From Clostridiales bacterium (GTDB lineage Bacteria; Bacillota; Clostridia; Lachnospirales; Lachnospiraceae): DNA of 60,890 nt. Numbering within the stretch: the first letter of the stretch is position 1; every line of letters starts with the position of its first letter. The notes beneath the pieces were generated by a model. The model did no database searches and was not told the origin of the DNA. It saw only the letters and a list, made by a program, of their open reading frames with translations. Of this stretch, positions 1 to 60,890 are shown in pieces. Location of the stretch: NCBI GenBank assembly GCA_014799595.1, contig JAAVHR010000022.1, positions 1-60,890 on the forward strand, given 5' to 3'. The position numbers and the translations under genes are program-made.

Positions 1-206
1 CCAACTGTATTCGTATTTCGGGCTGTCGCCCTACATACTCATACAGTTTAGCCAGCCAAATGTCTATATTTCTTTGCAAGCAAGCTTGCACGAAATATAG
101 CCGTTTGTCAGGACTTTCAAGGTAAATTTTACAATGTTTAAGCCCCTTCGCCGAAGGCGAATATTCATGGGCTTAAACGTAACTGTTCATGGTTCTGAAC
201 AGTTAC
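1..206 (+). mobile_element. Type-1 GTAAC-box mosaic element, 5' part cut off by the window edge (modules B-partial, C, D)
   Basis: Near-identical to 9629-9834, 12167-12372 and 52029-52234. Ends with the hairpin GTAACTGTTCATGGTTCTGAACAGTTAC. Confidence 0.85.
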
Positions 207-1922: not shown

Positions 1923-2209
1923 ATTATTGTTCTCTCACAAGCTTGACACTTGCTGTCAAGCTATGTGCCAAGAACATAGAACAGCCAAGATAACAGTTCA
2001 GGTAGGTCCGCACACTCCGCTGTGCAGACCGTAAAAAAGACTAAAACAGGATTGGAATTGGGCAATTTACATGCGAAGCTTGCCCAATTCCGTAACAGGT
2101 CAGTCCCTTGGCTGAACTGTTACCAGCTAAGAATCCAGCCCTTCGCCCAAGGCGAATTATAGATTGGCTGGATTCCGTTACTGTTAGCACCGTAGGTGTG
2201 AACAGTAAC
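1923..2209 (+). mobile_element. Family-2-variant GTAAC-box element carrying a nested family-3 element
   Basis: Reverse complement of the 14217-14361 element apart from an insertion. Flanked by a perfect 8-bp direct repeat AAAATGTG (1915-1922 and 2210-2217). The right end is GTGAACAGTAAC and the left end is degenerate (ATTATTGTTCTC). Confidence 0.85.
1990..2123 (+). mobile_element. Family-3 GTAAC-box element nested inside element 1923-2209
   Basis: Inverted copy of 6737-6872. It interrupts the host sequence ...GAACAGCCAAGAATCCAGCC..., which is intact in the 14217-14361 copy. Flanked by CAGCCAAG (1982-1989) and CAGCTAAG (2124-2131). Confidence 0.85.
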
Positions 2210-2922: not shown

Positions 2923-3067
2923 GTTACTGTTCACAGGTAGTACTTTGCACTTGCTGCAAAGTACGTAAGAATAAGTAGTGGTAGAAAAGAATCCAGCCTT
3001 TCGCCGAAGGCGAATTCCTAATAGGCTGGATTCCGTTACTGTTTGCACCGTAGGTGTGAACAGTAAA
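2923..3067 (+). mobile_element. Family-2 GTAAC-box element (AGGTAG hairpin, GAATCCAGCC...GGCTGGATTC hairpin, terminal hairpin)
   Basis: Starts GTTACTGTTCAC and ends GTGAACAGTAA(A). A perfect 8-bp direct repeat AGAAATAC lies at 2915-2922 and 3068-3075. The element sits 25 nt upstream of the response-regulator start codon. Confidence 0.85.
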
Positions 3068-3779: not shown

Positions 3780-5348
3780 ATGAGACTGAAGCATAATTTT
3801 CATTCTATGCGTTTCCGGCTAACCTGTATGCTTGCTGTTTTAATTTTGGCTACTTTCTTTCTATGTTGGTTTGCAAATCAGATGTTTCTTCCGATGTATT
3901 ATCAGTATAGCAAAACAAATACGCTAAAACAAACTTATATTAAAGTGTATGAAGAGTTAAATAAACTGAATAATGGGGAAGATGAAGATACTGGCCAAAT
4001 GGAATTATCTTTAGAAAAATGGAGTGAAGATAATAATTTAAGTATATATGTTATGAATTGGAGCCGTATTATACAAAATGGACAATGGAGCTATTTGGGA
4101 GAGTTTGTTTATCCCCAAAAAGAGGTATTAAATGAACTGGAAAGAAAACAGATATTATCCTTAATGGGGAAAAATATCGGAATATTAAAAGGTGAATCCG
4201 GATCCCAGGATAGATATTCTTTATATTCCTGTGATAATTATAATATTGTCCGGATTAATGACGACCGATTGGATTCTGAGTATTTGGAATTGGTGGGAGA
4301 GATGCAGGTAGGAGATACAACACATACTATATTTATGAGAAGCAATTATGAGAGTATTCAGGAAAGCGTACAATTATCCAGCCAATTTTTAATTTATGCT
4401 GGAATGGTTGCCACATTTCTTGGAGTTGTAGTTATGTTTGCGATTATCGGCTCTTTTACAAAACCAATTAAAAAACTTTCACATATAGCAGGTGAAATGG
4501 CAGAATTAAAATTTGAGACAAAATATACAAAACAACGCAAAGATGAAATTGGAGATTTAGGGCATTGTATTAATTTGTTGTCAGAAAAACTGGAGCAGAC
4601 AATATCAGAACTAAAAGCGGCGAATAATGAGTTACAGTCAGATATTGAGAATAAGATTCAAATTGATGAAATGCGGAAGGAATTTTTGTCTAATGTATCT
4701 CATGAATTAAAGACACCTATTGCATTAATTCAAGGATATGCAGAAGGATTACAGGAAAATATCAATGAGGATGAAGAAAGCCGGGAATTTTATTGCGATG
4801 TTATTATTGATGAAGCAAATAAAATGAACAAAATGGTTAAAAAACTCTTGAATTTAAATCAAATTGAATTTGGGAATAACTTAGTAGAATTTGAGCGTTT
4901 TGATATTGTCACAGTAATCCAGTCTGTAATAAATTCTACCCATATTTTGTTTGAACAGAAGGAAGTTACATTGATTTTTGAATCTTATGAGCCAATTTAT
5001 GTATGGGCGGATGAATATTCTATAGAAGAAGTGGTAACAAATTATATCAGTAATGCATTGAATCATGTGGATGGGGAAAAAATTGTAGAAGTTAAGATTA
5101 CCAAACAAGCTGGAAAAGTTCGCATATCTGTATATAATACAGGACAATCTATTCCAGATGAAGATTTGGAAAAAGTATGGATTAAATTTTACAAAGTTGA
5201 CAAAGCAAGAACCAGAGAATATGGTGGCAGCGGAATTGGGCTATCTATTGTAAAGGCAATTATGAATTCCCTACATCAGGAGTGTGGTGTGAGAAATTGT
5301 TCTAATGGAGTAGAATTCTGGTTTGAGTTAGATATGCAGGATGACTAA
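3780..5348 (+). CDS. Sensor histidine kinase (2 TM, HAMP, HisKA, HATPase_c)
   Basis: Has an H-box (FLSNVSHELKTPIA), an N box (NALNH) and a G box (GGSGIGLSIVK). ATG 3780 follows the RBS AGGAGAGG. Confidence 0.9.
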   Translation: MRLKHNFHSMRFRLTCMLAVLILATFFLCWFANQMFLPMYYQYSKTNTLKQTYIKVYEELNKLNNGEDEDTGQMELSLEKWSEDNNLSIYVMNWSRIIQNGQWSYLGEFVYPQKEVLNELERKQILSLMGKNIGILKGESGSQDRYSLYSCDNYNIVRINDDRLDSEYLELVGEMQVGDTTHTIFMRSNYESIQESVQLSSQFLIYAGMVATFLGVVVMFAIIGSFTKPIKKLSHIAGEMAELKFETKYTKQRKDEIGDLGHCINLLSEKLEQTISELKAANNELQSDIENKIQIDEMRKEFLSNVSHELKTPIALIQGYAEGLQENINEDEESREFYCDVIIDEANKMNKMVKKLLNLNQIEFGNNLVEFERFDIVTVIQSVINSTHILFEQKEVTLIFESYEPIYVWADEYSIEEVVTNYISNALNHVDGEKIVEVKITKQAGKVRISVYNTGQSIPDEDLEKVWIKFYKVDKARTREYGGSGIGLSIVKAIMNSLHQECGVRNCSNGVEFWFELDMQDD

Positions 5349-5460
5349 GAAATGATTTGCTTTTCTGGTGATTTCTTGCTATAATGTATAAATGAGAGTT
5401 GTCTGCCTTGCAATAGTAACAAATGGACAACCATTTAAAAAAGTAAGAGGGTGTGTGAAT

Positions 5461-6039
5461 GTGAAAAAGCAAACTGTTATAGGAATGGCATTGATTGCAG
5501 CTTTAGGAATTAGTGGTTGTGATGTAACGGAATTGAACGAGGAACAGAATGCTCAAGCTGCGGAATATTTAGCAGGTGTTATGTTAAAGTATACTGTAGA
5601 TTATGAGAAGAGTTTAATTTACACTATTGCTACACCAGAACCAACAGTATCACCAGAGCAAACACAAGCACCGTCTCCAACAGATAAGTCAGGAGACAAT
5701 ACGATGCCGGACAAAAGTGGTGACCCAGCATCAAATGAAAAGAATAACACTGTATTATCTGATTTGAATGATGTATTGGATATTGCCAAATGTAAGGTTG
5801 CGTATAAAAGTATGAAAGAATGTAATAGTTATAATGAATCAGAAAATACATCCATTGGTCTTTTTGCAAAAGATGGAAGGAAACTTATTGTTGTTAAATT
5901 TCAAATAAAAAATCCGTCTTCTAAGGATGTAAAGATAGACTTGCATAAGAATGATGTTACCTATCAGTTGGTGTTACCTGATGGCAAAGTAGTAACTTCG
6001 CAGCTTACATTGCTTGGTAATGACATGAATTATCTATAA
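5461..6039 (+). CDS. Lipoprotein with a Pro/Thr/Ser-rich linker and a DUF4352-like beta-sandwich. The domain appears cut short by an in-frame TAA.
   Basis: GTG start after an RBS. Signal peptide with lipobox LGISGC. The stop at 6037-6039 is followed by an A15 run, then 126 nt in the same frame that look like the missing C-terminal strands. See findings. Confidence 0.65.
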   Translation: MKKQTVIGMALIAALGISGCDVTELNEEQNAQAAEYLAGVMLKYTVDYEKSLIYTIATPEPTVSPEQTQAPSPTDKSGDNTMPDKSGDPASNEKNNTVLSDLNDVLDIAKCKVAYKSMKECNSYNESENTSIGLFAKDGRKLIVVKFQIKNPSSKDVKIDLHKNDVTYQLVLPDGKVVTSQLTLLGNDMNYL

Positions 6040-6052
6040 AAAAAAAAAAAAA
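6038..6052 (+). repeat. A15 homopolymer tract
   Basis: Fifteen consecutive A residues. The tract begins inside the TAA stop of the lipoprotein ORF. Confidence 0.95.
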
Positions 6053-6173
6053 AGGGAAAGGAAGCAGAAGGAATTGTTGTATTTGAGGTAAGTAAGAAAA
6101 CTAGTGTATCAGATGCAAAATTAAAAGTTATTGGCAAAAATACAACTGCCGAGATTGCTTTATAAATTTCTGG

Positions 6174-6308
6174 GTAACTATTTAGGTAGAAACACGCATT
6201 TACTGCGTGTTTTGTAAGAAAAAGTAAATTTTGTAATGTTTAAGCCCCTTCGCCGAAGGCGAATTATTATGGGCTTAAACGTAACTGTTCATGGTTCTGA
6301 ACAGTTAC
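6174..6308 (+). mobile_element. Type-1 GTAAC-box element, short form (modules A, C, D; module B absent)
   Basis: Starts GTAACTATTTAGGTAG and ends TGAACAGTTAC. Flanked by ATTTCTGG (6166-6173) and GTTTCTGG (6309-6316). Confidence 0.85.
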
Positions 6309-6362
6309 GTTTCTGGTTAAAAATGAGAGTATTATAGCTATTAAGAATGTAGGAGAGCAAAG

Positions 6363-6734
6363 ATGGAATTTACAGAGAGAAAAAGAACATTATTTTTGGG
6401 ATTACCAATATGTTTTACCAAGTATCATATTACAGATGAAAAGATTACAATCAAACGTGGTTTTTTAAATCTGGTTGAAGATGATGCTTTTATGTTTAAA
6501 ATTCAGGATGTACGTTTAAAGAAAAGTTTTTTTGAAAGAATTTTTGGGATGGGAACAGTGGTTTGTTACACTGGAGATGTGACACATCCAGAATTAGAAA
6601 TGATTCATATCAAAAATACAGATAAGATTAAAGAGTTTATTATGGAAGCATCAGAAGAAGCCAGAATTAAAAGAAGAACACTGCATACGATGAATATTGA
6701 TGGAGATTTTAGCGGCGGACAAGAAGTTGAATAG
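6363..6734 (+). CDS. Bacterial PH-domain (bPH_2 / YdbS-like) protein
   Basis: 123-aa ORF. The ITDEKITIKRGFLN...QDVRLKKSFFERIFGMGTV pattern is typical of bPH_2 domains. Confidence 0.7.
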   Translation: MEFTERKRTLFLGLPICFTKYHITDEKITIKRGFLNLVEDDAFMFKIQDVRLKKSFFERIFGMGTVVCYTGDVTHPELEMIHIKNTDKIKEFIMEASEEARIKRRTLHTMNIDGDFSGGQEVE

Positions 6735-6736
6735 TA

Positions 6737-6872
6737 GTAACAGTTCAGCCAAGGGCTGACCTGTTACGGAATTGGGCAAGCTTCGCATTGTAAATTGCCC
6801 AATTCCAATCCTGTTTTAGTCTTTTTTACGGTCTTGCACAGCGGAGTGTGCAAGACCTACCTGAACTGTTAC
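6737..6872 (-). mobile_element. Family-3 GTAAC-box element (three internal hairpins)
   Basis: Starts GTAACAGTTCAG and ends CTGAACTGTTAC. A perfect 8-bp direct repeat GAATAGTA lies at 6729-6736 and 6873-6880. Confidence 0.9.
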
Positions 6873-6901
6873 GAATAGTAGTACAAAATGTAAAAAAATA
6901 G

Positions 6902-6930
6902 TTGACAAAAGTAAAAAAATGTGTTTTAAT
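6902..6930 (+). promoter_or_regulatory. Sigma-A-type promoter of the rplU operon
   Basis: TTGACA (6902-6907), a 17-nt spacer ending in TGT, then TTTAAT (6925-6930), giving an extended -10. Confidence 0.6.
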
Positions 6931-7011
6931 CAAATGGTATGCCGCACAGCGAGGTTTAAGTTTTAGTGATAAACACCATAGCTGGCGAGTAATGATAATA
7001 GGAGGTGCCAT
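6931..7011 (+). promoter_or_regulatory. 5' leader of rplU, candidate L21-leader autoregulatory RNA
   Basis: The call rests on position only. Firmicutes carry a structured L21 leader here. I could not verify the fold by eye. Confidence 0.3.
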
Positions 7012-7320
7012 ATGTACGCAATTATTGCAACAGGTGGTAAACAGTACAAAGTAGCCGAAGGCGATATCATTAATGTAGAGAAACTTGGAGTAGAAGCTGG
7101 AGAGAATGTTACATTTGATCAGGTTCTTGCTGTAAATAATGGTAGCTTAGTAGTAGGACAGCCTACTGTAGCTGGAGCAACAGTTACTGCTTCTGTAGTA
7201 AAAGAAGGCAAGGCTAAGAAAGTTATTGTTTACAGATATAAGAGAAAAACTGGATATCATAAAAAGAATGGTCATAGACAACAGTTTACTCAAGTTAAGA
7301 TTGAAAAGATTAATGCTTAA
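7012..7320 (+). CDS. rplU: 50S ribosomal protein L21
   Basis: Begins [18 protein letters not shown]... Confidence 0.95.
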
Positions 7321-7343
7321 TTTGCCCAGTGAGGTGATAAGGC

Positions 7344-7670
7344 ATGTTGACAGTAACCTTTAGTAAGAATTCGGATGGTATTTATTATGAAGTGCGTATA
7401 GAAGGACATGCAGAATACGCAGAGATGGGACAAGATATAGTTTGTGCCGGGATATCTGCATTATTTCTTAATACAGCTACCTCTATAGTGGAGCTTACAC
7501 CAGATGAAGTGGAGCTTTGGCAGGAGGAAGAAAATGAGATATCAGGATTCCGGATTATTTCATCAACGATTAGTGATGAGGCAGTATTGCTTATGGATTC
7601 CTTAATACTTGGACTAAATGGTATTGCGGATGAATATGGTGATAAGTATATTGTAATAATTTATCGATAA
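7344..7670 (+). CDS. prp: Ribosomal-processing cysteine protease Prp
   Basis: Lies between rplU and rpmA. His/Cys dyad context is present (EGHAEY...DIVCAGIS). Confidence 0.9.
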
Positions 7671-7687
7671 TTTCAAGGAGGTGTAGG

Positions 7688-7978
7688 ATGATGTTTAAGA
7701 TGAACCTTCAGTTGTTCGCACATAAAAAGGGAGTTGGATCTACTAAGAATGGTAGAGATTCTGAGTCTAAGAGATTAGGTGCTAAGAGAGCAGATGGTCA
7801 GTTTGTATTAGCTGGTAATATCTTATACAGACAGCGTGGTACAAAGATTCACCCAGGTATCAATGTTGGACGTGGTGGAGATGACACTTTATATGCATTA
7901 GTAGATGGTGTACTTAGATTTGAAAGAAAAGGTAGAGATAAGAAACAGGCTTCTGTTTATCCTGTAGAATCTAAATAA
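7688..7978 (+). CDS. rpmA: 50S ribosomal protein L27 with a Prp-cleaved N-terminal extension
   Basis: [10 protein letters not shown]|[15 protein letters not shown] matches the Firmicutes L27 propeptide motif. Confidence 0.95.
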
Positions 7979-8002
7979 GATTTTGAATTATTAAAATAAA
8001 AG

Positions 8003-8046
8003 ATGCTCTGAATATTTGAACATTCATATATTTAGAGCATTTTTCT
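8003..8046 (+). terminator. Rho-independent terminator of the rplU operon
   Basis: ATGCTCTGAATAT (8003-8015) pairs with ATATTTAGAGCAT (8028-8040), followed by TTTT. Confidence 0.8.
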
Positions 8047-8048
8047 TG

Positions 8049-8075
8049 CTTTATAGGAAAATTCGTCCTATAAAG
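8049..8075. repeat. Conserved hairpin CTTTATAGGA-N7-TCCTATAAAG, copy 1 of 2
   Basis: About 45 nt, including this hairpin, recur after the rpmB terminator (55865-55910). Confidence 0.8.
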
Positions 8076-8252
8076 TAAAAACGCTCCGCTTAGGATGTGC
8101 ACAGATGCGTAAGGACTATGGGTGCAAAAAAACATGCAACACACATCTGGCACGCAAAGGGTGCAATCCCCTCATGAATGAGGGGTTAGGGGAGTTGATG
8201 TGGGCTTGCCCACTTTGTTCTTAGAGATAAATTTGAATAGTGAGGTGAAAAC

Positions 8253-9542
8253 ATGTTTGCAGATAGTGCTAAGATATATATACGTTCTGGTAAAGGCGGA
8301 GATGGTCATGTGAGTTTTCGCAGGGAATTGTATGTGGCAGCTGGAGGACCAGATGGTGGTGATGGCGGCAGGGGCGGCGATTTGATTTTTGAAATAGATG
8401 AGGGTTTGAATACCTTGAATGATTTCCGTCATGTCCGTAAGTATTTTGCTACAGATGGAGAGCCAGGTGGAAAGAGAAATTGTCATGGTGCAGATGGTGA
8501 GAATAAAGTCGTGAAAGTCCCACCAGGAACTGTTATCAAAGATGCAGAGACAGGAAAAGTTATTGCTGATATGAACTATGAGAACCGGAGAGAAGTGATT
8601 TTAAAAGGTGGTCGTGGTGGAAAAGGAAATCAACACTATGCTACACCTACTATGCAGGTTCCAAAATATGCACAGCCTGGTAAGCCGGGAATGGAAATGA
8701 CAGTTATTTTGGAACTGAAAGTAATTGCAGATGTGGGACTTGTGGGATTCCCTAATGTAGGAAAGTCTACATTTTTATCACGGGTGACTAATGCAAAACC
8801 AAAGATTGCCAATTATCATTTTACCACATTGAATCCGAATCTTGGTGTTGTTGATTTGGAAGGAACAGATGGATTTGTAATTGCGGATATTCCTGGATTG
8901 ATTGAGGGAGCAGCCGAGGGGATTGGTTTGGGTCATGAATTTTTAAGGCACATTGAACGGACAAAATTGATGATTCACATGGTTGATGCTGCTTCTACAG
9001 AAGGAAGAGATCCTTTGGTGGATATACAGGTGATTAATGGAGAATTGGAGGCTTACAATCCGGAACTTGCAAAAAGACCACAGGTAATCGCAGCAAACAA
9101 AACAGACATTTTTTATGGTGATGAAGAAGAAACAGTTATATCTTTGTTGAGAGATGAATTTGAACCAAAAGGAATACCAGTTTTTCCGATTTCTGCTGTT
9201 AGTGGAAAAGGTGTCAAAGAATTGTTATATTATGTCAAAGAACAGTTAAACGAAATTGGTGATGAACCAGTTGTATTTGAAAAAGAATATTTTGTAGAAG
9301 ACTTAATTGTAGCAGATGAACCGTTTACAGTAGAAAAAGACGAAGAAGAGAATGTGTTTGTGGTAGAAGGTCCGAGAATTGAAAAGATGTTGGGTTATAC
9401 AAACTTGGATTCTGAAAAAGGATTTGAATTTTTCCAAAGATTTTTAAAAGAGAGTGGCATTTTAGAACAACTTGAAGCATTAGGAATACAAGATGGTGAT
9501 ACCGTAAGAATGTATGGTTTACAATTTGACTATTATAAGTAA
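8253..9542 (+). CDS. obg: GTPase Obg/CgtA
   Basis: Has the Obg fold (GGDGGRGG), G motifs (GFPNVGKST, DIPGLIEGA, NKTD) and a C-terminal OCT domain. The stop codon TAA (9540-9542) lies inside the repeat element. Confidence 0.95.
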   Translation: MFADSAKIYIRSGKGGDGHVSFRRELYVAAGGPDGGDGGRGGDLIFEIDEGLNTLNDFRHVRKYFATDGEPGGKRNCHGADGENKVVKVPPGTVIKDAETGKVIADMNYENRREVILKGGRGGKGNQHYATPTMQVPKYAQPGKPGMEMTVILELKVIADVGLVGFPNVGKSTFLSRVTNAKPKIANYHFTTLNPNLGVVDLEGTDGFVIADIPGLIEGAAEGIGLGHEFLRHIERTKLMIHMVDAASTEGRDPLVDIQVINGELEAYNPELAKRPQVIAANKTDIFYGDEEETVISLLRDEFEPKGIPVFPISAVSGKGVKELLYYVKEQLNEIGDEPVVFEKEYFVEDLIVADEPFTVEKDEEENVFVVEGPRIEKMLGYTNLDSEKGFEFFQRFLKESGILEQLEALGIQDGDTVRMYGLQFDYYK

Positions 9543-9834
9543 CTATTCAGGTAGAAACACGCATTTACTGCGTGTTTCGTAAGAAAAAATGAAAGTTGAT
9601 TGCTATGTGCTACGCACTCTCGCAATCACCAACTGTATTCGTATTTCGGGCTGTCGCCCTATATACTCATACAGTTTAGCCAGCCAAATATCTATATTTC
9701 TTTGCAAGCAAACTTGCACGAAATATAGCCGTTTGTCAGGACTTTCATAGTAAATTTTGTAATGTTTAAGCCCCTTCGCCGGAGGCGAATTAGTATGGGC
9801 TTAAACGTAACTGTTCATGTTTCTGGACAGTTAC
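9539..9834 (+). mobile_element. Type-1 GTAAC-box mosaic element, full length (modules A-B-C-D)
   Basis: Starts GTAACTATTCAGGTAG and ends CTGGACAGTTAC. A perfect 8-bp direct repeat TATTATAA lies at 9531-9538 and 9835-9842. Confidence 0.9.
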
Positions 9835-9852
9835 TATTATAAATAAAAATAC

Positions 9853-9881
9853 TTGACACCTTCTTACTTTTTGTGTATACT
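9853..9881 (+). promoter_or_regulatory. Sigma-A promoter of ylxM-ffh
   Basis: TTGACA (9853-9858), a 17-nt spacer ending in TG, then TATACT (9876-9881). Confidence 0.7.
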
Positions 9882-9920
9882 ATCACCTGTAAAGAAAATT
9901 GCTTTACAGGTGGTGCTTTT

Positions 9921-10301
9921 ATGGAATTTGAAAAAAAACAAAAAGACAATGACGCATTAGCACATATTCTAGAGATGTCTCTGTTATATGATTTTTATGG
10001 TGCCTTGCTAAAGGAACATAAGAGACGGATATTTGAAGATTATATTCTGAATGATTATTCTCTTGGAGAGATAGCTCAGGAACAAGGAATGAGCCGGCAG
10101 GGTGTGCATGATATTGTAAAGCGTTGCAGCAGAGAGTTGGAACATTATGAAGAAAGTTTACATTTGATTGAGAAGTTCCAAAAAACTAAAGAGACTGTGA
10201 ATGAAATTCATGCGGCTGCCATGCGGGTAAGAGAGACAAAGGATTTAGAAGAAATTGAAAAAATAGAGGCATTATCCAGTCAGATATTAGAGGTATTATA
10301 A
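9921..10301 (+). CDS. ylxM: UPF0122 / YlxM putative DNA-binding protein
   Basis: Conserved position upstream of ffh, with an HTH region (YSLGEIAQEQGMSRQGVHDIVKR). The start is ATG 9921, after AGGTGGTG. Confidence 0.85.
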   Translation: MEFEKKQKDNDALAHILEMSLLYDFYGALLKEHKRRIFEDYILNDYSLGEIAQEQGMSRQGVHDIVKRCSRELEHYEESLHLIEKFQKTKETVNEIHAAAMRVRETKDLEEIEKIEALSSQILEVL

Positions 10302-10324
10302 TCTGATTGGGGAGAGGAGTGGAT

Positions 10325-11662
10325 ATGGCATTTGATAGTTTGACAGATAAATTGCAGAATGTATTTCGGAATCTGCGTGGTAAAGGTCGTCTGTCTGAAG
10401 CTGATGTGAAGGCAGCACTTAGAGAAGTAAAATTGGCATTGCTCGAGGCAGATGTGAACTTCAAAGTTGTGAAGGATTTTGTGAAAGCAGTGCAGGAACG
10501 GGCAGTTGGTCAAGACGTAATGAATAGTTTGACTCCTGGACAGATGGTAATCAAGATTGTTAATGAAGAGATGGTTAAGCTTATGGGAAGCGAAACAACA
10601 GAAATTACCCTTCGTCCAGCTACAGAGATTACGGTAATACTTATGTGTGGTTTGCAAGGTGCTGGTAAGACAACAGCTACAGCAAAGCTGGCAGGAACCT
10701 TTAAGAAAAAGGGGCGTAAACCATTATTGGTTGCCTGTGATATTTATCGTCCGGCTGCGATCCAGCAGTTACAGATTAATGGAGAAAAGCAGGGAGTACC
10801 TGTATTTACCATGGGCGACAACCACAAACCAGTGAATATTGCAAAAGCTGCTATGGAGCATGCAAAAACAAATGGTAATAACATAGTGATTATTGATACA
10901 GCAGGACGTTTGCATATTGATGAAGGTATGATGGAGGAATTGATTGAGATTCGCCAGAATATAGAAGTTGACCAAAGCATTTTAGTAGTAGATGCCATGA
11001 CTGGACAAGATGCAGTAAATGTAGCACAGACTTTCAATGAGAAGATAGATATTGATGGTGTGATTTTAACAAAGTTAGATGGAGACACCAGAGGCGGTTC
11101 AGCATTATCCATCCGTGCAGTAACTGGAAGACCTATTCTGTACATTGGTACAGGTGAAAAGCTGACAGATTTAGAACAGTTTTATCCTGATAGAATGGCA
11201 TCAAGAATTCTTGGTATGGGAGATATCCTGACCTTAATTGATAAAGCACAAGCAGAGATTGATGAAGAAAAAGCATTAGAATTAGAAAAGAAGATTCGTA
11301 AAGCAGAATTTAATTTTGATGATTTTCTGGATCAGATGCAGCAGGTGAAGAAAATGGGAGGATTAACCAGTATTTTAAGCATGCTGCCAGGTGTAGGGCT
11401 TCCAAAGGATATTGATATTCCAGATGATGCAACAAAAGGAGTAGAAGCTATTATATACTCTATGACTAAAGAAGAAAGACAGAATCCAAATCTTTTGAAC
11501 CCTTCCCGTAAGAAGCGAATTGCAAAAGGGGCAGGTGTGGATATTGGCGAGGTTAATCGTTTGGTAAAACAATTTGAACAGTCCAGAAAAATGATGAAAC
11601 AAATGTCTGGTATGATGGGTGGAAAGAAAAAAGGTAAGTTTAAAATGCCATTTGGCTTTTAA
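10325..11662 (+). CDS. ffh: Signal recognition particle protein Ffh
   Basis: Begins MAFDSLTDKLQ, has GLQGAGKTT and a Met-rich M domain. Confidence 0.95.
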   Translation: MAFDSLTDKLQNVFRNLRGKGRLSEADVKAALREVKLALLEADVNFKVVKDFVKAVQERAVGQDVMNSLTPGQMVIKIVNEEMVKLMGSETTEITLRPATEITVILMCGLQGAGKTTATAKLAGTFKKKGRKPLLVACDIYRPAAIQQLQINGEKQGVPVFTMGDNHKPVNIAKAAMEHAKTNGNNIVIIDTAGRLHIDEGMMEELIEIRQNIEVDQSILVVDAMTGQDAVNVAQTFNEKIDIDGVILTKLDGDTRGGSALSIRAVTGRPILYIGTGEKLTDLEQFYPDRMASRILGMGDILTLIDKAQAEIDEEKALELEKKIRKAEFNFDDFLDQMQQVKKMGGLTSILSMLPGVGLPKDIDIPDDATKGVEAIIYSMTKEERQNPNLLNPSRKKRIAKGAGVDIGEVNRLVKQFEQSRKMMKQMSGMMGGKKKGKFKMPFGF

Positions 11663-11686
11663 TATGGTAGCGTAAGCTACAAGTAG

Positions 11687-11752
11687 GCTGCTGTTCACTG
11701 GTAGGACTTTGCACTTGTTGCAAAGTTTGTAAGAATAGGTGTGGACAGTAAC
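11687..11752 (+). mobile_element. Family-2 GTAAC-box element, internally deleted, with a degenerate left end
   Basis: Reads GCTGCTGTTCACTGGTAGGACTTTGCA...GGTGTGGACAGTAAC. Flanked by ACAAGTAG and ACAAGGAA (6 of 8 match). Confidence 0.65.
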
Positions 11753-11783
11753 ACAAGGAAAATATTCCAAGGAGGTGAAACAA

Positions 11784-12023
11784 GTGGTAAAGATCAGATT
11801 AAAAAGAATGGGACAGAAGAAAGCTCCTTTCTATAGAATAGTAGTTGCTGATGAAAGATCTCCTAGAGATGGTAGATTCATCGAAGAGATTGGAACATAC
11901 GATCCAAATCAGGAACCAAGTGTTTTCAATGTGAATGAAGAAGCTGCTAAGAAATGGTTATCAAATGGTGCAAAACCAACAGAAACCGTAGGAAAGCTTT
12001 TAAAGATTGCAGGCATCATGTAA
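11784..12023 (+). CDS. rpsP: 30S ribosomal protein S16
   Basis: GTG start after AGGAGGTG; begins [21 protein letters not shown]. Confidence 0.9.
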
Positions 12024-12033
12024 TAAATATGTT

Positions 12034-12066
12034 AACAGCGGAAGGGATTTGCTCTCTTTCGCTGTT
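12034..12066 (+). terminator. Stem-loop after rpsP, possibly an attenuator
   Basis: AACAGCGGAAG pairs with CTTTCGCTGTT. There is no clear U-tract. Confidence 0.4.
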
Positions 12067-12077
12067 GTACTAAGTAC

Positions 12078-12372
12078 GTAACTATTCAGGTAGAAACACG
12101 CATTTACTGCGTGTTTCGTATGAAAAATGAAAGTTGATTGCTACGTGCTACGCACTCCCGCAATCACTAACTGTATTCGTATTTCGAGCTGTCGCCCTAC
12201 ATACTCATACAGTTTAGCCAGCCAAATGTCTATATTTCTTTGCAAGCAAGCTTGCACAAAATATAGCCGTTTGTCAGGACTTTCATAGTAAATTTTACAA
12301 TGTTAAAGCCCCTTTGCCGAAGGCGAATATTCATGGGCTTAAACGTAACTGTTCATGGTTCTGAACAGTTAC
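12078..12372 (+). mobile_element. Type-1 GTAAC-box mosaic element, full length
   Basis: Near-identical to 9539-9834. Flanked by CTAAGTAC (12070-12077) and CTAAATAC (12373-12380). Confidence 0.9.
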
Positions 12373-12438
12373 CTAAATACAATAATTGAGGTTTATAAAA
12401 AACACTTGTGAAGAATTGGGTATTTGGAGGTGAGAGAG

Positions 12439-12669
12439 ATGAAGGATTTGATTAGATGTATAGCCGAGTCTTTGGTAGATAATCCGGGTGAGGTAGTTGT
12501 AACAGAGAGTGAGACGGAGAAGGGGACCGTAATTAGCTTAAAAGTTGCAGAAGAAGATATGGGGAAAGTAATTGGAAAACAAGGTCGTATTGCAAAAGCG
12601 ATTCGTACAGTTGCAAAAGCAGCGGCTTCAAAAGATGATAAAAAGATTATTGTGGAGATTCAGCAGTAA
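12439..12669 (+). CDS. khpA: KH-domain RNA-binding protein (YlqC/KhpA family)
   Basis: Contains VIGKQGRIAKAIRTV (GXXG KH motif). Conserved position between rpsP and rimM. Confidence 0.8.
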   Translation: MKDLIRCIAESLVDNPGEVVVTESETEKGTVISLKVAEEDMGKVIGKQGRIAKAIRTVAKAAASKDDKKIIVEIQQ

Positions 12670-12717
12670 AAATATGCTAATGTTGCTAAAGGAAAAGGAA
12701 TAAGACATTGCACAAGC

Positions 12718-12806
12718 CAGATAAACGGCTGTATGAAATTGTGTGTTCTAAAGGAATAGGCTATTTGAGCCTCCATAGCATGCCCATTCATACAGCCGTT
12801 TGTCAG
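12718..12806. repeat. Long hairpin (18-20 bp stem, about 50-nt structured loop) related to module B
   Basis: CAGATAAACGGCTGTATGAA (12718-12737) pairs with TTCATACAGCCGTTTGTCAG (12787-12806). It shares AGCCGTTTGTCAG with the type-1 elements. Confidence 0.75.
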
Positions 12807-12813
12807 AATTTTT

Positions 12814-12894
12814 GTAACAGTTCAGCCAGAAAAAATATTTTTAGCCAATTTGTATATTCTGGCACTTTATGAATGGACTTGGCTGAACTCTTAC
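12814..12894 (+). mobile_element. Family-4 GTAAC-box element
   Basis: Starts GTAACAGTTCAGCC and ends GGCTGAACTCTTAC. A perfect 8-bp direct repeat GAATTTTT lies at 12806-12813 and 12895-12902. Confidence 0.9.
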
Positions 12895-12925
12895 GAATTT
12901 TTTAGTGTTAAAGAAGAGGAGTTTT

Positions 12926-13438
12926 ATGGAGAATAATATGCTAAGAGTTGGTGTTTTTGCCAATACACATGGAATTGCAGGAGAAATCAAAGTATATCCT
13001 ACTACAGATGATGTAGAACGTTTTAGGAAGTTAAAAAAGGTATATCTGGATACAGGAAAGGAACTGTTGGAGTGGGAAATTGCCAATGTAAAGTTCTTTA
13101 AAAATATGGTAATTTTAAAGTTTAAAGGAATAAATAATATTAATGATATTGAAAAATATAAAGGAAAAGATTTATATATAACAAGAGAACAGGCAGTACC
13201 ATTAGAAGAGGATGAATATTTTTTGTGTGATGTAATTGGCTCATTGGTTGTAACGGAAGATGGGATGGAATTAGGTGTAGTGAAAGAAGTGCTGCAAACA
13301 GGAGCAAATGATGTTTATGTGGTAGAAGATCAGCAGAAAAAGGAGATTTTATTGCCTGTAATTAAAGATTGCATTTTAGATATTGATTTTGAACATAAAA
13401 TTGTAAAGGCACATTTGATGCCAGGATTAATAGATTAG
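12926..13438 (+). CDS. rimM: 16S rRNA processing protein RimM
   Basis: Contains [21 protein letters not shown] and a PRC barrel C-terminus. The start is ATG 12926, after GAGGAG. Confidence 0.9.
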
Positions 13439-13451
13439 GCAGGAGAAAACT

Positions 13452-14141
13452 ATGCATTATCATGTATTAACATTATTTCCGGATATGATAGAACATGCAA
13501 TGGGACAGAGTATTACAGGCAGAGCCTTGCAGAACAGCTTGTTGAGTATGGATGTTATCAATATCCGGGATTTTTCAGAGAATAAATATAATAAAGTGGA
13601 CGATTATCCTTATGGTGGTGGTGCTGGGATGGTTATGCAGCCAGGACCAGTGTTTTGTGCGTATGAAAAGGTTAAAGAAAATATAGAAAAACAAGGAAGA
13701 GTGAGCAAACCAAAGGTTGTATATATGACACCACAAGGAAAAGTTTTTCACCAAAAAATTGCAAAAGAGCTTGCAAAAGAAGAAGATTTGGTGATTCTTT
13801 GTGGGCATTATGAGGGAATTGATGAAAGAGTTCTGGAAGAAATTGTAGATGAGAATATTTCTATAGGAGATTATATATTAACTGGCGGAGAATTGCCGGC
13901 GTTGGTGGTAATGGATTCCATAGCAAGATTACTTCCAGGAGTGTTACACAATGAAGAATCTGCCCAGTTAGAGAGCTTTTCTAATAATCTTTTGGAATAT
14001 CCTCAGTATACACGGCCGGTAGAATGGCATGGAAAAAGAGTTCCGGAGGTATTATTGTCTGGCCATCATGCTAATATAGAAAAATGGAGACAACAACAGT
14101 CGTTGGAACGAACAAAAGAAAGGCGGCCGGATTTGTTGTAA
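13452..14141 (+). CDS. trmD: tRNA (guanine37-N1)-methyltransferase TrmD
   Basis: Contains HVLTLFPDM, YPYGGGAGMVM and GHYEGIDERV. The stop TAA (14139-14141) lies inside the repeat element. Confidence 0.95.
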   Translation: MHYHVLTLFPDMIEHAMGQSITGRALQNSLLSMDVINIRDFSENKYNKVDDYPYGGGAGMVMQPGPVFCAYEKVKENIEKQGRVSKPKVVYMTPQGKVFHQKIAKELAKEEDLVILCGHYEGIDERVLEEIVDENISIGDYILTGGELPALVVMDSIARLLPGVLHNEESAQLESFSNNLLEYPQYTRPVEWHGKRVPEVLLSGHHANIEKWRQQQSLERTKERRPDLL

Positions 14142-14371
14142 CAGTTCAGCCAGAAAAAATATTTTTAGCCAATTTGTATATTCTGGCACTTTATGAATGA
14201 GCCCAGCTGAACTGTTGTTACAGTTCACACCTATGGTGCAAACTGTAACGGAATCCAGCCTATTAATAATTCGCTTTCAGCGAAAGGCTGGATTCTTGGC
14301 TGTTCTATCTTCTTGGCACATAGCTTGACAGCAAGTGTCAAGCTTGTGAGTGAACAGTAACGAACTGTTAC
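14138..14371 (+). mobile_element. Family-4 GTAAC-box element with a family-2-variant element inserted in its right terminus
   Basis: The left part matches 12814-12885. The right TIR CTGAACTGTT|AC is split by the insertion at 14217-14361. The outer flanks are GATTTGTT and GACTTGTC (6 of 8 match). Confidence 0.8.
14217..14361 (-). mobile_element. Family-2-variant GTAAC-box element, nested
   Basis: Starts GTTACAGTTCAC and ends GTGAACAGTAAC. A perfect 8-bp direct repeat GAACTGTT lies at 14209-14216 and 14362-14369. That target is itself the TIR of the host element. Confidence 0.9.
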
Positions 14372-14400
14372 GACTTGTCAAAAATCTAAAGAAAAAAAGC

Positions 14401-14429
14401 TTGCAATTTATGTAAAAGTATGGTAAAGT
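14401..14429 (+). promoter_or_regulatory. Candidate promoter of rplS
   Basis: TTGCAA, a 17-nt spacer ending in TGG, then TAAAGT, giving an extended -10. Confidence 0.5.
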
Positions 14430-14509
14430 TTGAATGTTGTGAGAAAAAAGATGGTCCGCTGTTACCAGTAGTGTAATAAGAACATCCTAATATTAAAGGA
14501 GGAAACACA
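14430..14509 (+). promoter_or_regulatory. 5' leader of rplS, candidate L19-leader RNA
   Basis: The call rests on position only. The fold is not verified. Confidence 0.25.
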
Positions 14510-14857
14510 ATGAATAACATTATTAAAAACATTGAAGATGCTCAGTTGAAGCAGAATGTAGATGAATTTAACGTAGGTGATACGGTAAGAGTTCATGCAA
14601 AGGTAAAAGAAGGAAACCGTGAAAGAATTCAGGTATTTGAAGGTACTGTCTTAAAGAGACAGAATGGTGGAATTAAAGAAACTTTTACAGTTAGAAAGAA
14701 TTCTAATGGAATTGGTGTAGAAAAGACTTGGCCTGTGCATTCTCCAATTGTAGAGAAGATTGAAGTAGTTAGACGTGGTAAAGTTAGAAGAGCAAAATTA
14801 TTCTACTTACGTGGTAGAGTTGGTAAGGCTGCTAAGGTAAAAGAATTGGTGAAATAA
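14510..14857 (+). CDS. rplS: 50S ribosomal protein L19
   Basis: Contains [26 protein letters not shown]. Confidence 0.95.
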
Positions 14858-14885
14858 TAGTAACTAATTTTAACAGCAAAAATAA

Positions 14886-14920
14886 GGAACCTTTTATCTT
14901 TGGATAAAGGGTTCTTTTTG
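14886..14920 (+). terminator. Rho-independent terminator after rplS
   Basis: GGAACCTTTTATC pairs with GATAAAGGGTTC, followed by TTTTT. Confidence 0.8.
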
Positions 14921-21133: not shown

Positions 21134-21161
21134 GTAACTGTTCATGGTTCTGAACAGTTAC
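21134..21161. repeat. Minimal GTAAC-box hairpin GTAACTGTTCATGGTTCTGAACAGTTAC
   Basis: 11-bp stem with a 6-nt loop, identical to module D of the type-1 elements. Confidence 0.85.
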
Positions 21162-21323
21162 AAAACACCCATGCCTTGTGGGCTACGGCATCACCATAAA
21201 TATATTCGCATGGGTGTTTCATAAACGGGGATGCACACAAGTGCAAAAGCAGCACTTGGTGCTTTACGAACCTTGCAGCAAAGTGCAAGGTTCTACCTAA
21301 AAAGAGTGAATATATAGAAATAA
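21162..21323 (-). repeat. Hairpin mosaic adjoining the minimal element, ending with an AGGTAG-hairpin module in inverted orientation
   Basis: Contains AAACACCCATGC...GCATGGGTGTTT, AGCACTTGGTGCT and GAACCTTGCA-GCAAAG-TGCAAGGTTC followed by TACCT. The segment from about 21274 to 21323 recurs inverted at 60841-60890. Confidence 0.7.
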
Positions 21324-34700: not shown

Positions 34701-34845
34701 GTTACTGTTTACAGTTAGGACTTTGCACTTGCTGCAAAGTCCGTAAGAATAAGTAGTGGTAGCGAAGAATCCAGCCTTTTGCCGAAGGCGAATTTTAAAT
34801 AGGCTGGATTTTGTTACTGTGAGCATCATGGATGTGAACAGTAAC
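34701..34845 (+). mobile_element. Family-2 GTAAC-box element inserted between pilD and pilMN
   Basis: About 90% identical to 2923-3067. Starts GTTACTGTTTAC and ends GTGAACAGTAAC. Flanked by TAAAAGAC (34693-34700) and AAAAAGAC (34846-34853). Confidence 0.85.
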
Positions 34846-51939: not shown

Positions 51940-52234
51940 GTAACTATTCAGGTAGAAACACGCATTTACTGCGTGTTTCGTAAGAAAAATGAAAGTTGAT
52001 TGTTACGTGCTACGCACTCCCGCAATCACTAACTGTATTCGTATTCTGGGCTACCGCCCTACATACTCATACAGTTTAGCCAGCCAAATGTCTATATTTC
52101 TTTGCAAGCAAGCTTGCACGAAATATAGCCGTTTGTCAGGACTTTCATAGTAAATTTTGATTGTTCTAAGCCCTTCACTGAAGGTGAATTTTCATGGGCT
52201 TAGAACGTAACTGTTCATGGATCTGAACAGTTAC
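51940..52234 (+). mobile_element. Type-1 GTAAC-box mosaic element, full length
   Basis: A perfect 8-bp direct repeat GGAAATAG lies at 51932-51939 and 52235-52242. Confidence 0.9.
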
Positions 52235-58502: not shown

Positions 58503-58638
58503 GTAACTATTCAGGTAGAAACACGCATTTACTGCGTGTTTCGTAAGAAAAAAGTGAAAGTTGATTGTTCTAAGCCCTTCGCCAAAGGCGAATTTTCATG
58601 GGCTTAGAACGTAACTGTTCATGGTTCTGAACAGTTAC
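58503..58638 (+). mobile_element. Type-1 GTAAC-box element, short form (module B almost entirely deleted)
   Basis: A perfect 8-bp direct repeat AATATTTA lies at 58495-58502 and 58639-58646. Confidence 0.9.
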
Positions 58639-60840: not shown

Positions 60841-60890
60841 TTATTTCTATATATTCACTCTTTTTAGGTAGAACCTTGCACTCTGCTGCA
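60841..60890 (+). repeat. Start of another AGGTAG-hairpin element, cut by the window edge
   Basis: Reverse complement of about 21274-23 (...TTTTTAGGTAGAACCTTGCACTCTGCTGCA). Confidence 0.7.

Follow-up and report, generated by a model that had tools for sequence, protein, structure and literature searches.

What is the short module, the tag AGGTAG followed by a hairpin and GTAAG, that recurs in this clostridial DNA, and what keeps its stem paired while the stem sequence changes? We addressed this question starting from the copy at 9549..9583 of the window, that is, the whole stretch of 60,890 nucleotides analysed here. The combination AGGTAG-N10-36-GTAAR appears nine times in the window versus 1.85 expected, a number that was not reached in any of 100 shuffled sequences, and eight of these nine are real modules. 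The AGGTAG hexamer is not enriched by itself (29 versus 22.3), and the signal is therefore the composite module. In all, the window contains 12 copies of the module, with an element density of approximately one per 4 kb (Table 1).

Our results show that the module is the left end of the elements of a very abundant family within the ISBst12 group (IS66 family), all of them miniature transposons without autonomy (MITEs); this supports the previous proposal that it is subterminal in a mobile element. These MITEs are 31–373 nt long (66–296 bp in the window), lack a transposase ORF and are bounded by 12-bp terminal inverted repeats, GTAACNNTTCAG, with the left form GTAAC(T/A)(A/G)TTCAG and the inverted end CTGAA..GTTAC; the right end usually folds onto a further copy of the repeat lying inward of it, and thus is itself a hairpin. 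Perfect 8-bp target duplications were found for 66 elements, and duplications with at most one mismatch for 103, with the same inverted termini bounding all of them. Precise empty sites were also seen at MITE positions in strains of roughly 97% identity. For example, the site lacking the MITE at 9539..9834 (9539|9844) is present in contigs from two gut metagenomes, the MITE at 6174..6308 is missing in a related strain (empty site 6174|6318) and that at 6737..6872 is likewise missing in a related strain. There are hundreds of copies per genome, read depth over the MITEs is 100–250 times the single-copy depth, and the family is still mobile.

The first 12 nt of the MITEs, GTAACTATTCAG, are identical to those of an element from pHTA426, a plasmid of Geobacillus kaustophilus, which has an annotated IS66-like transposase, the left inverted repeat GTAACTATTCAGCC and the 8-bp duplication AACTCGTC. 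The termini also match at 11 of 12 nt the terminal inverted repeat of ISDge4, GTAACTGCTCAGCA, a member of the ISBst12 group with an 8-bp repeat (PMC12898284), and those in the window conform to the consensus of the group, GTAACT(A/G)(C/T)TCAG. The transposases of the relatives carry PF03050, PF13005 and PF20042, and share 58% identity with that of ISBst12. Among 80 metagenomic ISBst12-like elements, 66 have both termini, eight of them with perfect 8-bp duplications, and the same termini occur in Clostridia and in metagenome-assembled genomes (MAGs) of Desulfobulbaceae.

An IS66-family DDE transposase, supplied in trans, presumably moves these MITEs through recognition of their termini. The cognate transposase was not found in ca. 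0.46 Mb of readable DNA of the species, window included; ca. 0.4 Mb of a conspecific MAG yielded neither a multicopy ORF nor a tblastn match to the transposase, as read from assemblies of a type that collapse repeats, and the clostridial loci contained no duplication-flanked element larger than 400 bp. Two paralogous ORFs of ca. 540 aa near the MITEs appear, judged by eye alone, ATPase/nuclease-like rather than transposases. A plasmid collection gave no match to the MITEs, and a scan of viral contigs for GTAACNNTTCAGGTAG, used as a negative control, retrieved only chance matches inside coding sequence, all of which lacked a partner terminus. Literature searches with the terminal sequences returned only primers and 16S rRNA text, and we found no IS66/ISBst12-derived MITE family described in the searchable literature.

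Table 1. Module-bearing and module-less elements of the window, with their parts; duplication, target-site duplication; Clostridiales-1, Rfam RF01699.
Feature	Position	Strand	Details
Type-1 long MITE, truncated by the window start	1..206	+	Clostridiales-1 at 1-122 (minus strand); right fold-back at 179-206
Type-4a MITE	1990..2123	+	Module 2000-2035; stem GGTCCGCACA / TGTGCAGACC, one C.A mismatch; inserted within a module-less sister MITE (1923-2209); duplication CAGCCAAG / CAGCTAAG
Type-2 MITE	2923..3067	+	Module 2935-2969; stem GTACTTTGCA / TGCAAAGTAC (2940-2964); duplication AGAAATAC
Type-1 short MITE, without Clostridiales-1	6174..6308	+	Module 6184-6218, closing pair G.T; duplication (A/G)TTTCTGG
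Type-4b MITE	6737..6872	-	Module 6825-6862; 11-bp stem GGTCTTGCACA / TGTGCAAGACC (6826-6857, minus strand); duplication TACTATTC
Type-1 long MITE holding the studied module	9539..9834	+	Left repeat, module, RNA and fold-back mapped
Left terminal repeat of 9539..9834	9539-9550		GTAACTATTCAG
Module of 9539..9834	9549..9583	+	AGGTAG, stem, loop TTTAC, stem, GTAAG; arms GAAACACGCA (9554-9563) / TGCGTGTTTC (9569-9578)
Clostridiales-1 RNA of 9539..9834	9590-9747	-	
Second hairpin of 9539..9834			Between Clostridiales-1 and right fold-back
Right fold-back terminus of 9539..9834	9807-9834		
8-bp duplication of 9539..9834	9531-9538 and 9835-9842		TATTATAA
Short degenerate type-2 derivative	11687..11752	+	Only left end, module and right terminus; tag TGGTAG (11699-11704); module 11699-11733; stem GGACTTTGCA / TGCAAAGTTT, two G.T
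Type-1 long MITE	12078..12372	+	Between rpsP and the next operon gene; module 12088-12122, then CGTATG; Clostridiales-1 at 12128-12285 (minus strand); duplication CTAA(G/A)TAC
Module-less sister MITE, 81 nt	12814..12894	.	Same termini; perfect duplication GAATTTTT
Module-less MITE, second copy of the 12814..12894 type	14138-14216		
Module-less MITE, another type	14217-14361		
Type-5 element	21134..21318	-	Module 21263-21298; stem GAACCTTGCA / TGCAAGGTTC (21268-21293, minus strand); right end a normal fold-back terminus (21134-21161)
Type-2b MITE	34701..34845	+	Tag AGTTAG; module 34713-34747; stem GGACTTTGCA / TGCAAAGTCC (34718-34742), compensated with respect to type 2; duplication (T/A)AAAAGAC
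Type-1 long MITE	51940..52234	+	Module 51950-51984; Clostridiales-1 at 51990-52147 (minus strand); duplication GGAAATAG
Type-1 short MITE	58503..58638	+	Module 58513-58547; duplication AATATTTA
Second type-5 copy, truncated by the window end	60846..60890	+	Tag 60866-60871

The stop codon TAA of obg (9540-9542) falls within the terminal GTAAC of the MITE at 9539..9834, and the MITE at 51940..52234 lies between a stop codon and the ribosome-binding site of the following gene. The type-5 element at 21134..21318, whose left end, TCTATATATTCAC, differs from the canonical terminal repeat, is antisense to, and just upstream of, a gene starting at 21356.

The Clostridiales-1 RNA turns out to be an optional internal cargo of the type-1 MITEs. 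In four copies of the window it adjoins the module; it runs on the other strand from the tag, and is a unit separate from the hairpin rather than a part of it; in the MITE at 58503..58638 it was lost through a deletion between two TTGATTG repeats. This motif is very common in gut Clostridia, and its original description (Weinberg et al. 2010; PMC2864571) does not place it in a mobile element. In the supplementary alignment of the motif, no match between the flanks and the MITE termini could be established. The location of an orphan Rfam family inside a mobile element leads to a rereading of its abundance and of its apparent lack of gene association.

The stems listed in the preliminary description are all present where it had placed them, although that at 6831-6856 really comprises 11 bp. 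Likewise, the tag (C)AGGTAG exists but tolerates variants, both in the window (AGTTAG at 34713, TGGTAG at 11699) and elsewhere (AGGCAG, AGATAG, AAGTAG and AGGTAA). The module had also been assigned to every subfamily, which does not hold: it is missing from several sister subfamilies that share the termini, including the three module-less MITEs at 12814-14361 (Table 1) and minimal elements of 31–33 nt in related loci. As RNA, the module hairpins fold at −15.5 to −22 kcal/mol, most of them with z from −2.5 to −4.8 (−17.6 kcal/mol and z −4.3 for that at 9549..9583), and as DNA at −11 to −12 kcal/mol.

To what extent is pairing preserved? The alignment comprised 13 distinct stem variants, taken both from the window and from the conspecific MAG and chosen for intact stems, which favours pairing; in them, 97.7% of the stem cells pair, versus 70.7% in shuffles, none of 500 of which reached the observed value, and pairing falls to 26–48% when the partners are slid. 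Eight of the 11 stem pairs show double-sided changes, with 40 double-change cells versus 12.5 in shuffles, and no stem pair shows a single-sided change. The double-sided changes include G:C to T:A transversions (in L053) and a one-base insertion in both arms (type 4a to 4b), and position 2 of the type 2 stem occurs as T:A, G:C and C:G; the top of the stem, GCA-loop-TGC, is invariant. The alignment thus bears out the previous claim that pairing, and not sequence, is kept across subfamilies. Indeed, the founders of all five large subfamilies have perfect stems, each with a different sequence, formed by Watson-Crick pairs with zero G.U.

The stems had also been described as perfect, and this is so for 66 of 97 copies (61 with the subfamily consensus and five perfect but compensated); the remaining 31 are imperfect, 17 with one unpaired position and 14 with two or more, and include those at 2000-2035 (C.A), 6184 (G.T) and 11699-11733 (two G.T) in the window. 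Compensated changes had been expected to prevail over unpaired ones among genome copies, but single copies are imperfect in 31 cases and compensated in five, and the constraint is visible only in amplified lineages. Because the founders are perfect and resident copies decay uncompensated, the constraint would act on which copies spread or persist. Stems diverge (5.8%) about as little as the terminal repeat (5.1%) and less than linkers (9.2%; p = 4e-5) and loops (9–24%). Wobble-forming transitions are not in excess in the stems (15 versus 16; background, 233 versus 126). The MITEs are built almost wholly of hairpins, and the most abundant subfamilies all carry the module. Damaged stems have amplified too: a variant with a bulged A has five copies, and one lacking the upper stem (TTTAAAGACC) has three plus two further-mutated copies (TTTAAAGACC in L027 and TTTAAAGATC in L013).

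Comparison with autonomous elements places each part of the module. AGGTAG marks the left repeat's inner edge, since AG ends the terminal repeat, GT continues it, as at both ends of the autonomous relatives, and the final G opens the stem; the variants GTGG and GTCG of GTAG are also found in left repeats of autonomous IS66-family elements. CGTAAG aligns to the stretch preceding the ATG of the transposase in compact autonomous relatives (GTAACTATTCAGGTAG-N27-CGTAAGGATTGCTG-ATG), and in the autonomous elements L045 and L199 GTAACTATTCAGGTAG is found directly ahead of the transposase gene. The spacer between the left repeat and CGTAAG is occupied by the perfect palindrome of 10–11 bp, which in types 1, 2 and 4 begins 16 nt into the element (at nt 16), and the distance from the terminal repeat to GTAA is 41–44 bp. 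This strong hairpin is peculiar to the MITEs. It is absent from ca. 64 distinct autonomous left ends, and none of the autonomous elements inspected, nine retrieved via protein matches and 66 via a metagenome scan, shows it. Only four of 55 autonomous left ends have a perfect stem of at least 7 bp, and on average the folding energy is no lower at autonomous left ends than at the right ones. In Desulfobulbaceae MITEs the hairpins after GTAG are weak and inconsistent (z from 0.1 to −3.2). Some relatives (L195 and L216) and the Desulfobulbaceae MITEs have the terminal repeat a second time, in direct orientation, at +44; because this occurs in just 3–4 of 64 autonomous elements, the idea of a bipartite end is tentative.

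The module had been proposed to be a transposase-binding subterminal hairpin, in the sense of IS200/IS605. This finds no support, given the 12-bp inverted repeats and 8-bp duplications, termini that are DDE-type ends of the ISBst12 group and the ca. 64 autonomous relatives without a comparable hairpin. Further, module-less MITEs, down to those of 31–33 nt, inserted with perfect duplications, so that neither recognition nor movement requires the hairpin. We infer that the stem is no sequence-specific protein site and is unneeded for transposition. Both the inverted repeats with 8-bp duplications and the mobility of module-less copies led us to drop IS200/IS605 elements, or a miniature derivative of them, as the identity of the repeat. 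Two other leads were suggested by the GTAG-plus-hairpin arrangement, REP/RAYT and, together with the adjoining structured RNA, omega-RNA, and both were dropped on account of the 8-bp duplications and the inverted termini.

What, then, might the hairpin do? The most likely reading, which we hold tentatively and at somewhat less than an even chance, is that it acts as a nucleic-acid structure in transcripts that read through the inserts, where a non-terminating stem would make the insert harmless or stabilise the neighbouring message, like REP, ERIC and Correia repeats. The account as a whole, an ISBst12-group MITE with a hairpin most likely acting in read-through transcripts, seems to us probable, if only just. 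The copies occupy 3' and intercistronic spacers, also inside operons, and are co-oriented with genes in a ratio of 50:14 (27:5 for type 4, 15:5 for type 1 and 8:4 for type 2). A perfect palindrome folds alike from both strands, so the hairpin alone cannot explain this bias; gene and replication directions coincide in this genome, and thus the bias could also come from the transposition mechanism. Neither promoters nor terminators were predicted in the module, and no terminator-like site was found on any module scanned in 1-15000 or 21050-21450. On the tag strand, the stem is followed by an A-run; on the other strand, it is followed by CTACCTGAA and preceded by a U-run. The covariance models of Rfam 15 leave the module uncovered even at E ≤ 1, with only Clostridiales-1 and tmRNA matching. 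Among RNA data sets, runs labelled with the host contributed zero reads, none of the metatranscriptomes with raw reads contained the element, and the one metatranscriptome in the set consists of contigs without strand direction, in which DNA may be present. There are also features that run against a role in RNA, namely founder stems without G.U, changes that are all double-sided and no excess of wobble transitions. Stems free of G.U and double-sided changes, transversions and the paired insertion among them, resemble the outcome of pairing at the DNA level, or of templated correction in one step, more than typical RNA covariation.

A possible but rather unlikely alternative is the closest surviving form of the transposase-binding hairpin: the module would act in cis, as DNA, and help the ISBst12-type transposase to mobilise the element more efficiently. 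For example, the hairpin, extruded in the spacer of ca. 30 bp, could place the terminal repeat beside the subterminal, repeat-like CGTAA; or, where the DNA is single-stranded at a replication fork, it could label the left end. The fixed position at nt 16 is consistent with this, as are a repeat-to-GTAA spacing that matches the second repeat at +44 in L195, L216 and the Desulfobulbaceae MITEs, the purely Watson-Crick founder stems, a stem conservation equal to that of the terminal repeats and the presence of the module in all of the most abundant subfamilies; the strand bias could stem from replication coupling. However, the module-less MITEs, including those of 31–33 nt, moved without it, the autonomous left ends lack a comparable stem (barring the four of 55) and fold no better than right ends, and damaged-stem variants amplified regardless. 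We know of no precedent in IS66-family biology for a subterminal hairpin that aids mobilisation.

About as unlikely is that the palindrome has no function, and that a single ancestral palindrome diverged while intrastrand template switching (quasi-palindrome correction), a process established in E. coli genetics, kept its arms complementary. Mutations would be copied from arm to arm, and the covariation would therefore be mutational, not selective. This would account for between-subfamily changes that are all double-sided and never single-sided, for transversion pairs and a compensated insertion (4a to 4b) without a viable wobble intermediate, for the invariant stem top and for a module without terminator, promoter or Rfam signal. 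Nevertheless, 31 of 97 copies hold uncorrected mismatches, so correction is not pervasive; stems diverge below linkers, and about as little as terminal repeats, and the composition of the MITEs, almost wholly of hairpins, suggests that structure as such is favoured.

Less likely still, and with a wider scope, the palindrome could be a structure-specific, sequence-independent cis signal by which the DDE system or a host factor favours some MITEs, the same vehicles delivering an RNA cargo. This cargo would comprise Clostridiales-1 RNA and the outward-acting type-5 modules, always in front of genes. If true, the gut Clostridia would harbour a modular MITE system for the delivery of RNA and hairpins, beyond plain junk repeats.

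A role of the hairpin as transcription terminator, or as 3' end of an adjoining Clostridiales-1 small RNA gene, is very improbable. In its favour, the stem is stable, comes right behind the stop codons of obg and of other genes, and lies 6 nt past the point where the minus-strand match to the Rfam Clostridiales-1 model has its 3' end. Against it, the stem is not followed by a T-run on either strand, the Rfam model stops at 9590 and excludes the module, Clostridiales-1 is missing from most module copies (types 2, 4, 5 and short type 1), and downstream operon genes must be transcribed through the inserts. HUH elements make no target duplications, and we consider it least credible of all that a Y1 HUH transposase (RAYT or TnpA) processes the module as a REP-like or IS200/IS605-like single-strand DNA hairpin. 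For this reading speak a GTAG tag directly 5' of an extragenic palindrome (types 1, 2, 4 and 5) and hundreds of intergenic, strand-biased copies; against it stand the inverted repeats and 8-bp duplications, a GTAG that belongs to the left repeat of autonomous IS66-family elements, termini equal to those of DDE elements and an unsystematic look in which no Y1 gene was noticed beside any copy.

In all, a striking repeat is explained by an active MITE family of the little-studied ISBst12 group. Its differing perfect stems, decaying resident copies and module-less sisters amount to a natural experiment on hairpin upkeep, and their comparison could separate RNA selection, transposition selection and hairpin-templated mutation. 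The elements of 31–33 nt consist of only two terminal repeats; they are expected to be among the smallest transposable units and define the minimal transposase substrate, while the MITE at 12814..12894 is a control for the module being dispensable.

The arrangement of GTAG and palindrome resembles the REPs of the REP/RAYT literature. As in REP/BIME, GTAG lies directly 5' of an extragenic palindrome, the copies number in the hundreds and are strand-biased, and stems differ between families with pairing kept; in contrast, REPs have neither terminal inverted repeats nor duplications and depend on a Y1 HUH enzyme. IS200/IS605 subterminal hairpins are also alike, situated a few bases inside the element end and with structure prevailing over sequence across relatives. 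However, those hairpins are transposase recognition sites, used on a single strand, and their elements lack inverted repeats and duplications, whereas the window MITEs can dispense with the hairpin and are presumably recognised at their 12-bp termini. Correia/NEMIS from Neisseria, RUP and BOX from pneumococcus, ERIC from enterobacteria and MITEAba12 are likewise short and non-autonomous, with inverted termini and target duplications, and are intergenic, of very high copy number, modular, rich in hairpins and co-transcribed with their neighbours. They derive from IS630-type, IS5-type or unknown parents, and generate TA or 9-bp duplications. They also have demonstrated RNA effects, which for the window MITEs are only proposed. 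The difference in parent IS and duplication draws in part on PMC6382973. Finally, the insertion sequences of the ISBst12 group differ from the window MITEs in that the latter lack a transposase gene and have a right end formed by a fold-back of two terminal repeats; in some members of the group, as in the MITEs, the left repeat continues into GGTAG, with CGTAAG located just before the start codon of the transposase.

Every copy of the AGGTAG-hairpin-GTAAG module is part of a larger element that starts with GTAAC(T/A)(A/G)TTCA and ends with TGAAC(A/T)GTTAC, the right end usually being a fold-back of two terminal repeats, and AT-rich target DNA stands on both sides of these elements as an 8-bp direct duplication (see table). 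In a systematic test of the window and 75 loci from a genome scan, 66 elements had perfect 8-bp duplications and 103 had at most one mismatch. The source of most of these loci is a MAG with the label 'uncultured Clostridiaceae', of the same species as the window (97% identity across one shared kilobase). Gut-metagenome contigs of ca. 97% identical strains join 9539 to 9844 and 6174 to 6318, so that the element and one copy of the duplication are exactly absent in those strains, and gut-metagenome reads cover the elements 100-250 times as deeply as single-copy sequence. Because of the duplications, the exact empty sites and the high read depth, we identify the elements as MITEs that have been active recently and number in the hundreds. 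At obg, the stop codon TAA is supplied by the MITE terminus, whereas in the strain that lacks the insertion obg closes with a native AAG TAA; the insertion thus left the Obg protein unchanged. Minimal elements also occur, in which a short loop separates two inverted terminal repeats and nothing else is present; two of them, at different loci, have perfect 8-bp target duplications. Such elements suggest that larger MITEs end, on the right, in a fold-back that is a mobile unit in itself.

Features of the window and of retrieved loci (L-numbers)
Feature	Position	Strand	Details
Module under study	9548-9590		GTAACTATTC-AGGTAG-AAACACGCA-TTTAC-TGCGTGTTT-CGTAAGAAAAAA; starts at obg stop codon
Type-1 MITE holding it	9539-9834		8-bp duplication TATTATAA
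End of obg	9531-9545		frame stops at TAA inside MITE terminal GTAAC
MITE	51940-52234		8-bp duplication GGAAATAG; between stop codon and next ribosome-binding site
Type-1 MITE	58503-58638		8-bp duplication AATATTTA; Clostridiales-1 lost by deletion between two TTGATTG repeats
MITE	6737-6872		8-bp duplication TACTATTC
Inserts in ffh-rpsP-khpA region	11687-11752; 12078-12372
Module-less sister MITE, host of nested insertion	1923-2209		different hairpin AGCTTGACA/TGTCAAGCT at module position, loop CTTGC again
Nested type-4 MITE	1990-2123		own duplication CAGCCAAG/CAGCTAAG
Minimal elements, 31-33 nt	L030:7037-7069; L042:3919-3951; L075:6623-6653; also window 1787-1828
Clostridiales-1 RNA (RF01699)	1-122; 9590-9747; 12128-12285; 51990-52147	-
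Clostridiales-1 miniature, 75 nt	18149-18223	+	outer stem and one inner hairpin
Type-5 element	21134-21318	-	others in L029, L053, L054, L074
Type-5 element	60846-60890	+
Separate repeat family	8037-8221; 55860-55910		hairpin CTTTATAGGA-N7-TCCTATAAAG and neighbouring sequence
tmRNA gene	851-1194		tag AEDNLAYAA; between two MITE-bearing spacers
Tandem array (Chitinophagaceae MAG)	L060:4894-5062		42-nt units: GTAACTTTTCAGGTAG, then short hairpin (GGCAATAC...GGATTGCC)

The termini lead to the ISBst12 group of IS66. IS66-family inverted repeats read GTAAGCGTCC... and GTAACCGTCCGGGCA (PMC12888890), and ISDge4, of the single-ORF ISBst12 group, has terminal repeats GTGACTACTCAGCA / GTAACTGCTCAGCA and an 8-bp repeat (PMC12898284). 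An ISBst12-type element of the Geobacillus plasmid pHTA426, with a transposase annotated as IS66-like (domains PF03050, PF13005 and PF20042; 58% identity to a protein named ISBst12), starts with GTAACTATTCAGCCCGTAC, identical to type-1 MITEs over the first 12 nt, and ends in ...GGGCTGAATAGATAC, with AACTCGTC at either flank. In L045, a genome-scan locus from a Verrucomicrobiales MAG, a homologous transposase gene starts 55 nt beyond GTAACTATTCAGGTAG. Relatives of L045 (L194-L199) show the compact order terminal repeat, GT(A/G/C)G, TTAAGAAAG..., CGTAAG/CGTAAC and ATG, the transposase stop codon lying within the right repeat; L195, L199 and relatives are very compact autonomous elements of ca. 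1.5 kb, with the start codon only ca. 55 nt from the left tip and the stop as C-TGA-ATAGTTAC. A metagenome scan added 80 relatives, 66 with both termini (1.52-1.9 kb), eight of these with perfect 8-bp duplications. MITEs of 152-373 nt with the terminal 16-mer GTAACTATTCAGGTAG and perfect 8-bp duplications are also present in Thermodesulfobacteriota/Desulfobulbaceae MAGs (JAYEPA01, JANTFJ01, JANTGB01, JAOZOY01, DRKH01; a subset of L004-L077), ordered as terminal repeat, 32-nt spacer of variable sequence and constant length, second direct repeat GTAACTGTTCAG, core and inverted repeat.

In ISBst12-type MITEs, the module forms the left end. The AG of AGGTAG is the end of the 12-bp terminal repeat and GT its continuation (autonomous elements read ...CAGGT at both ends), while the final G is the partner of the C in CGTAAG. 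The stretch directly before the start codon in L045 (CGTAAGGATTGCTG-ATG) and L194 (CGTAAGAACTGTTG-ATG) aligns to CGTAAG(A/G)A, and at +44 L195, L216 and the Desulfobulbaceae MITEs have the terminal repeat a second time, in direct orientation. The palindrome occupies the ca. 23-27 nt between the two landmarks. None of the autonomous elements examined was a source for it: among 55 distinct left ends from the metagenome scan, a perfect stem of at least 7 bp is present there in only 4, AT-rich, Firmicute-like elements have none, and folding is no better at left ends than at right ends.

In the window, AGGTAG-N10-36-GTAAR occurs nine times against 1.85 expected (reached in 0 of 100 shuffles), eight matches being true modules, although the AGGTAG hexamer by itself is not enriched; looser searches raised the modules to 12 (10 on the plus strand, two on the minus). 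The stems reported in the preliminary description are all present at the positions given, and the folding energies of the stems (RNA, -15.5 to -22 kcal/mol; DNA, about -11 to -12 kcal/mol) are in most cases well below those of shuffled controls. Its claim that both arms change together between subfamilies was borne out. In an 11-pair alignment of 13 distinct variants, chosen as intact and hence biased towards pairing, although intact stems are the majority of copies, 97.7% of cells are paired (slid controls, 26-48%) and 8 of 11 pairs changed on both sides. Double-change cells number 40 (shuffles, 12.5, with none of 500 as high). Among the double changes are transversions and a one-base insertion shared by the two arms (type 4a to 4b); single-sided, G.U-type changes are absent from this alignment.

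The perfect stem it described holds for the founders of every sizeable subfamily, which differ in sequence, but not for single copies, 31 of 97 having unpaired positions (17 with one, 14 with two or more); 61 equal their subfamily consensus and five are perfect compensated variants, indicating that single copies decay without compensation. Per-site divergence is 5.8% in stems, 5.1% in terminal repeats, 9.2% in linkers (p = 4e-5 vs stems) and 9-24% in loops, and wobble-forming transitions are not enriched in stems. What amplifying lineages have in common is pairing, not sequence, and we infer a constraint on the spread or persistence of copies.

Type-1 MITEs contain Clostridiales-1 as an optional internal module, bounded by inverted ATGAAAGT/ACTTTCAT and lacking in short copies; the original description of this RNA, from 2010, does not connect it with mobile DNA. 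The Clostridiales-1 miniature lies in no recognisable MITE, on the strand opposite to the other copies. In type-5 elements the left end is non-canonical (TCTATATATTCAC...). In at least five of six copies it is antisense and precedes a ribosome-binding site and start codon by 30-60 nt (the signal in L074 is unclear). These elements might provide or alter a promoter or 5' leader; no consensus promoter was found. The separate repeat family, at ca. 50 times single-copy depth in gut metagenomes, is unrelated to the MITE termini.

A requirement of the hairpin for transposition is ruled out, as sister subfamilies without it have perfect duplications, and so do 31-33-nt elements of two repeats. No terminator or promoter consensus matches the module, and no Rfam family includes it; in its element, the Clostridiales-1 match lies on the opposite strand and ends before reaching it.

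Inserts occupy short spacers between co-directional genes, so transcription must cross them. Gene and replication direction were approximated by the flanks' strong purine skew; by this measure, the tag strand is co-oriented in type 4 (27:5), type 1 (15:5) and type 2 (8:4), and Clostridiales-1 is antisense to flanking genes 8:1 across loci; as both directions coincide here, their effects on this bias are inseparable. Window genes are nearly all on the plus strand, and GC skew stays between +0.2 and +0.36 over the whole window.

We tentatively favour an effect of the hairpin in read-through transcripts: a stable, non-terminating stem would make the insert tolerable in operons or stabilise the neighbouring message. 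In favour of this are the operon setting and the richness of all these MITEs in hairpins. The lack of G.U pairs and the compensated transversions and insertion point instead to two DNA-level readings: an effect on mobilisation, which we consider somewhat less likely, and a palindrome without function, its arms matched through hairpin-templated template switching, which we consider slightly less likely again. A REP or IS200/IS605 type is rejected because those make neither inverted termini nor duplications.

We found no described IS66/ISBst12-derived MITE family in the searchable literature; MITEs as such are a known kind, and this family adds a structural twist. For an effect in read-through transcripts, the model is known intergenic hairpin repeats, which stabilise the neighbouring message or keep the insert tolerable.
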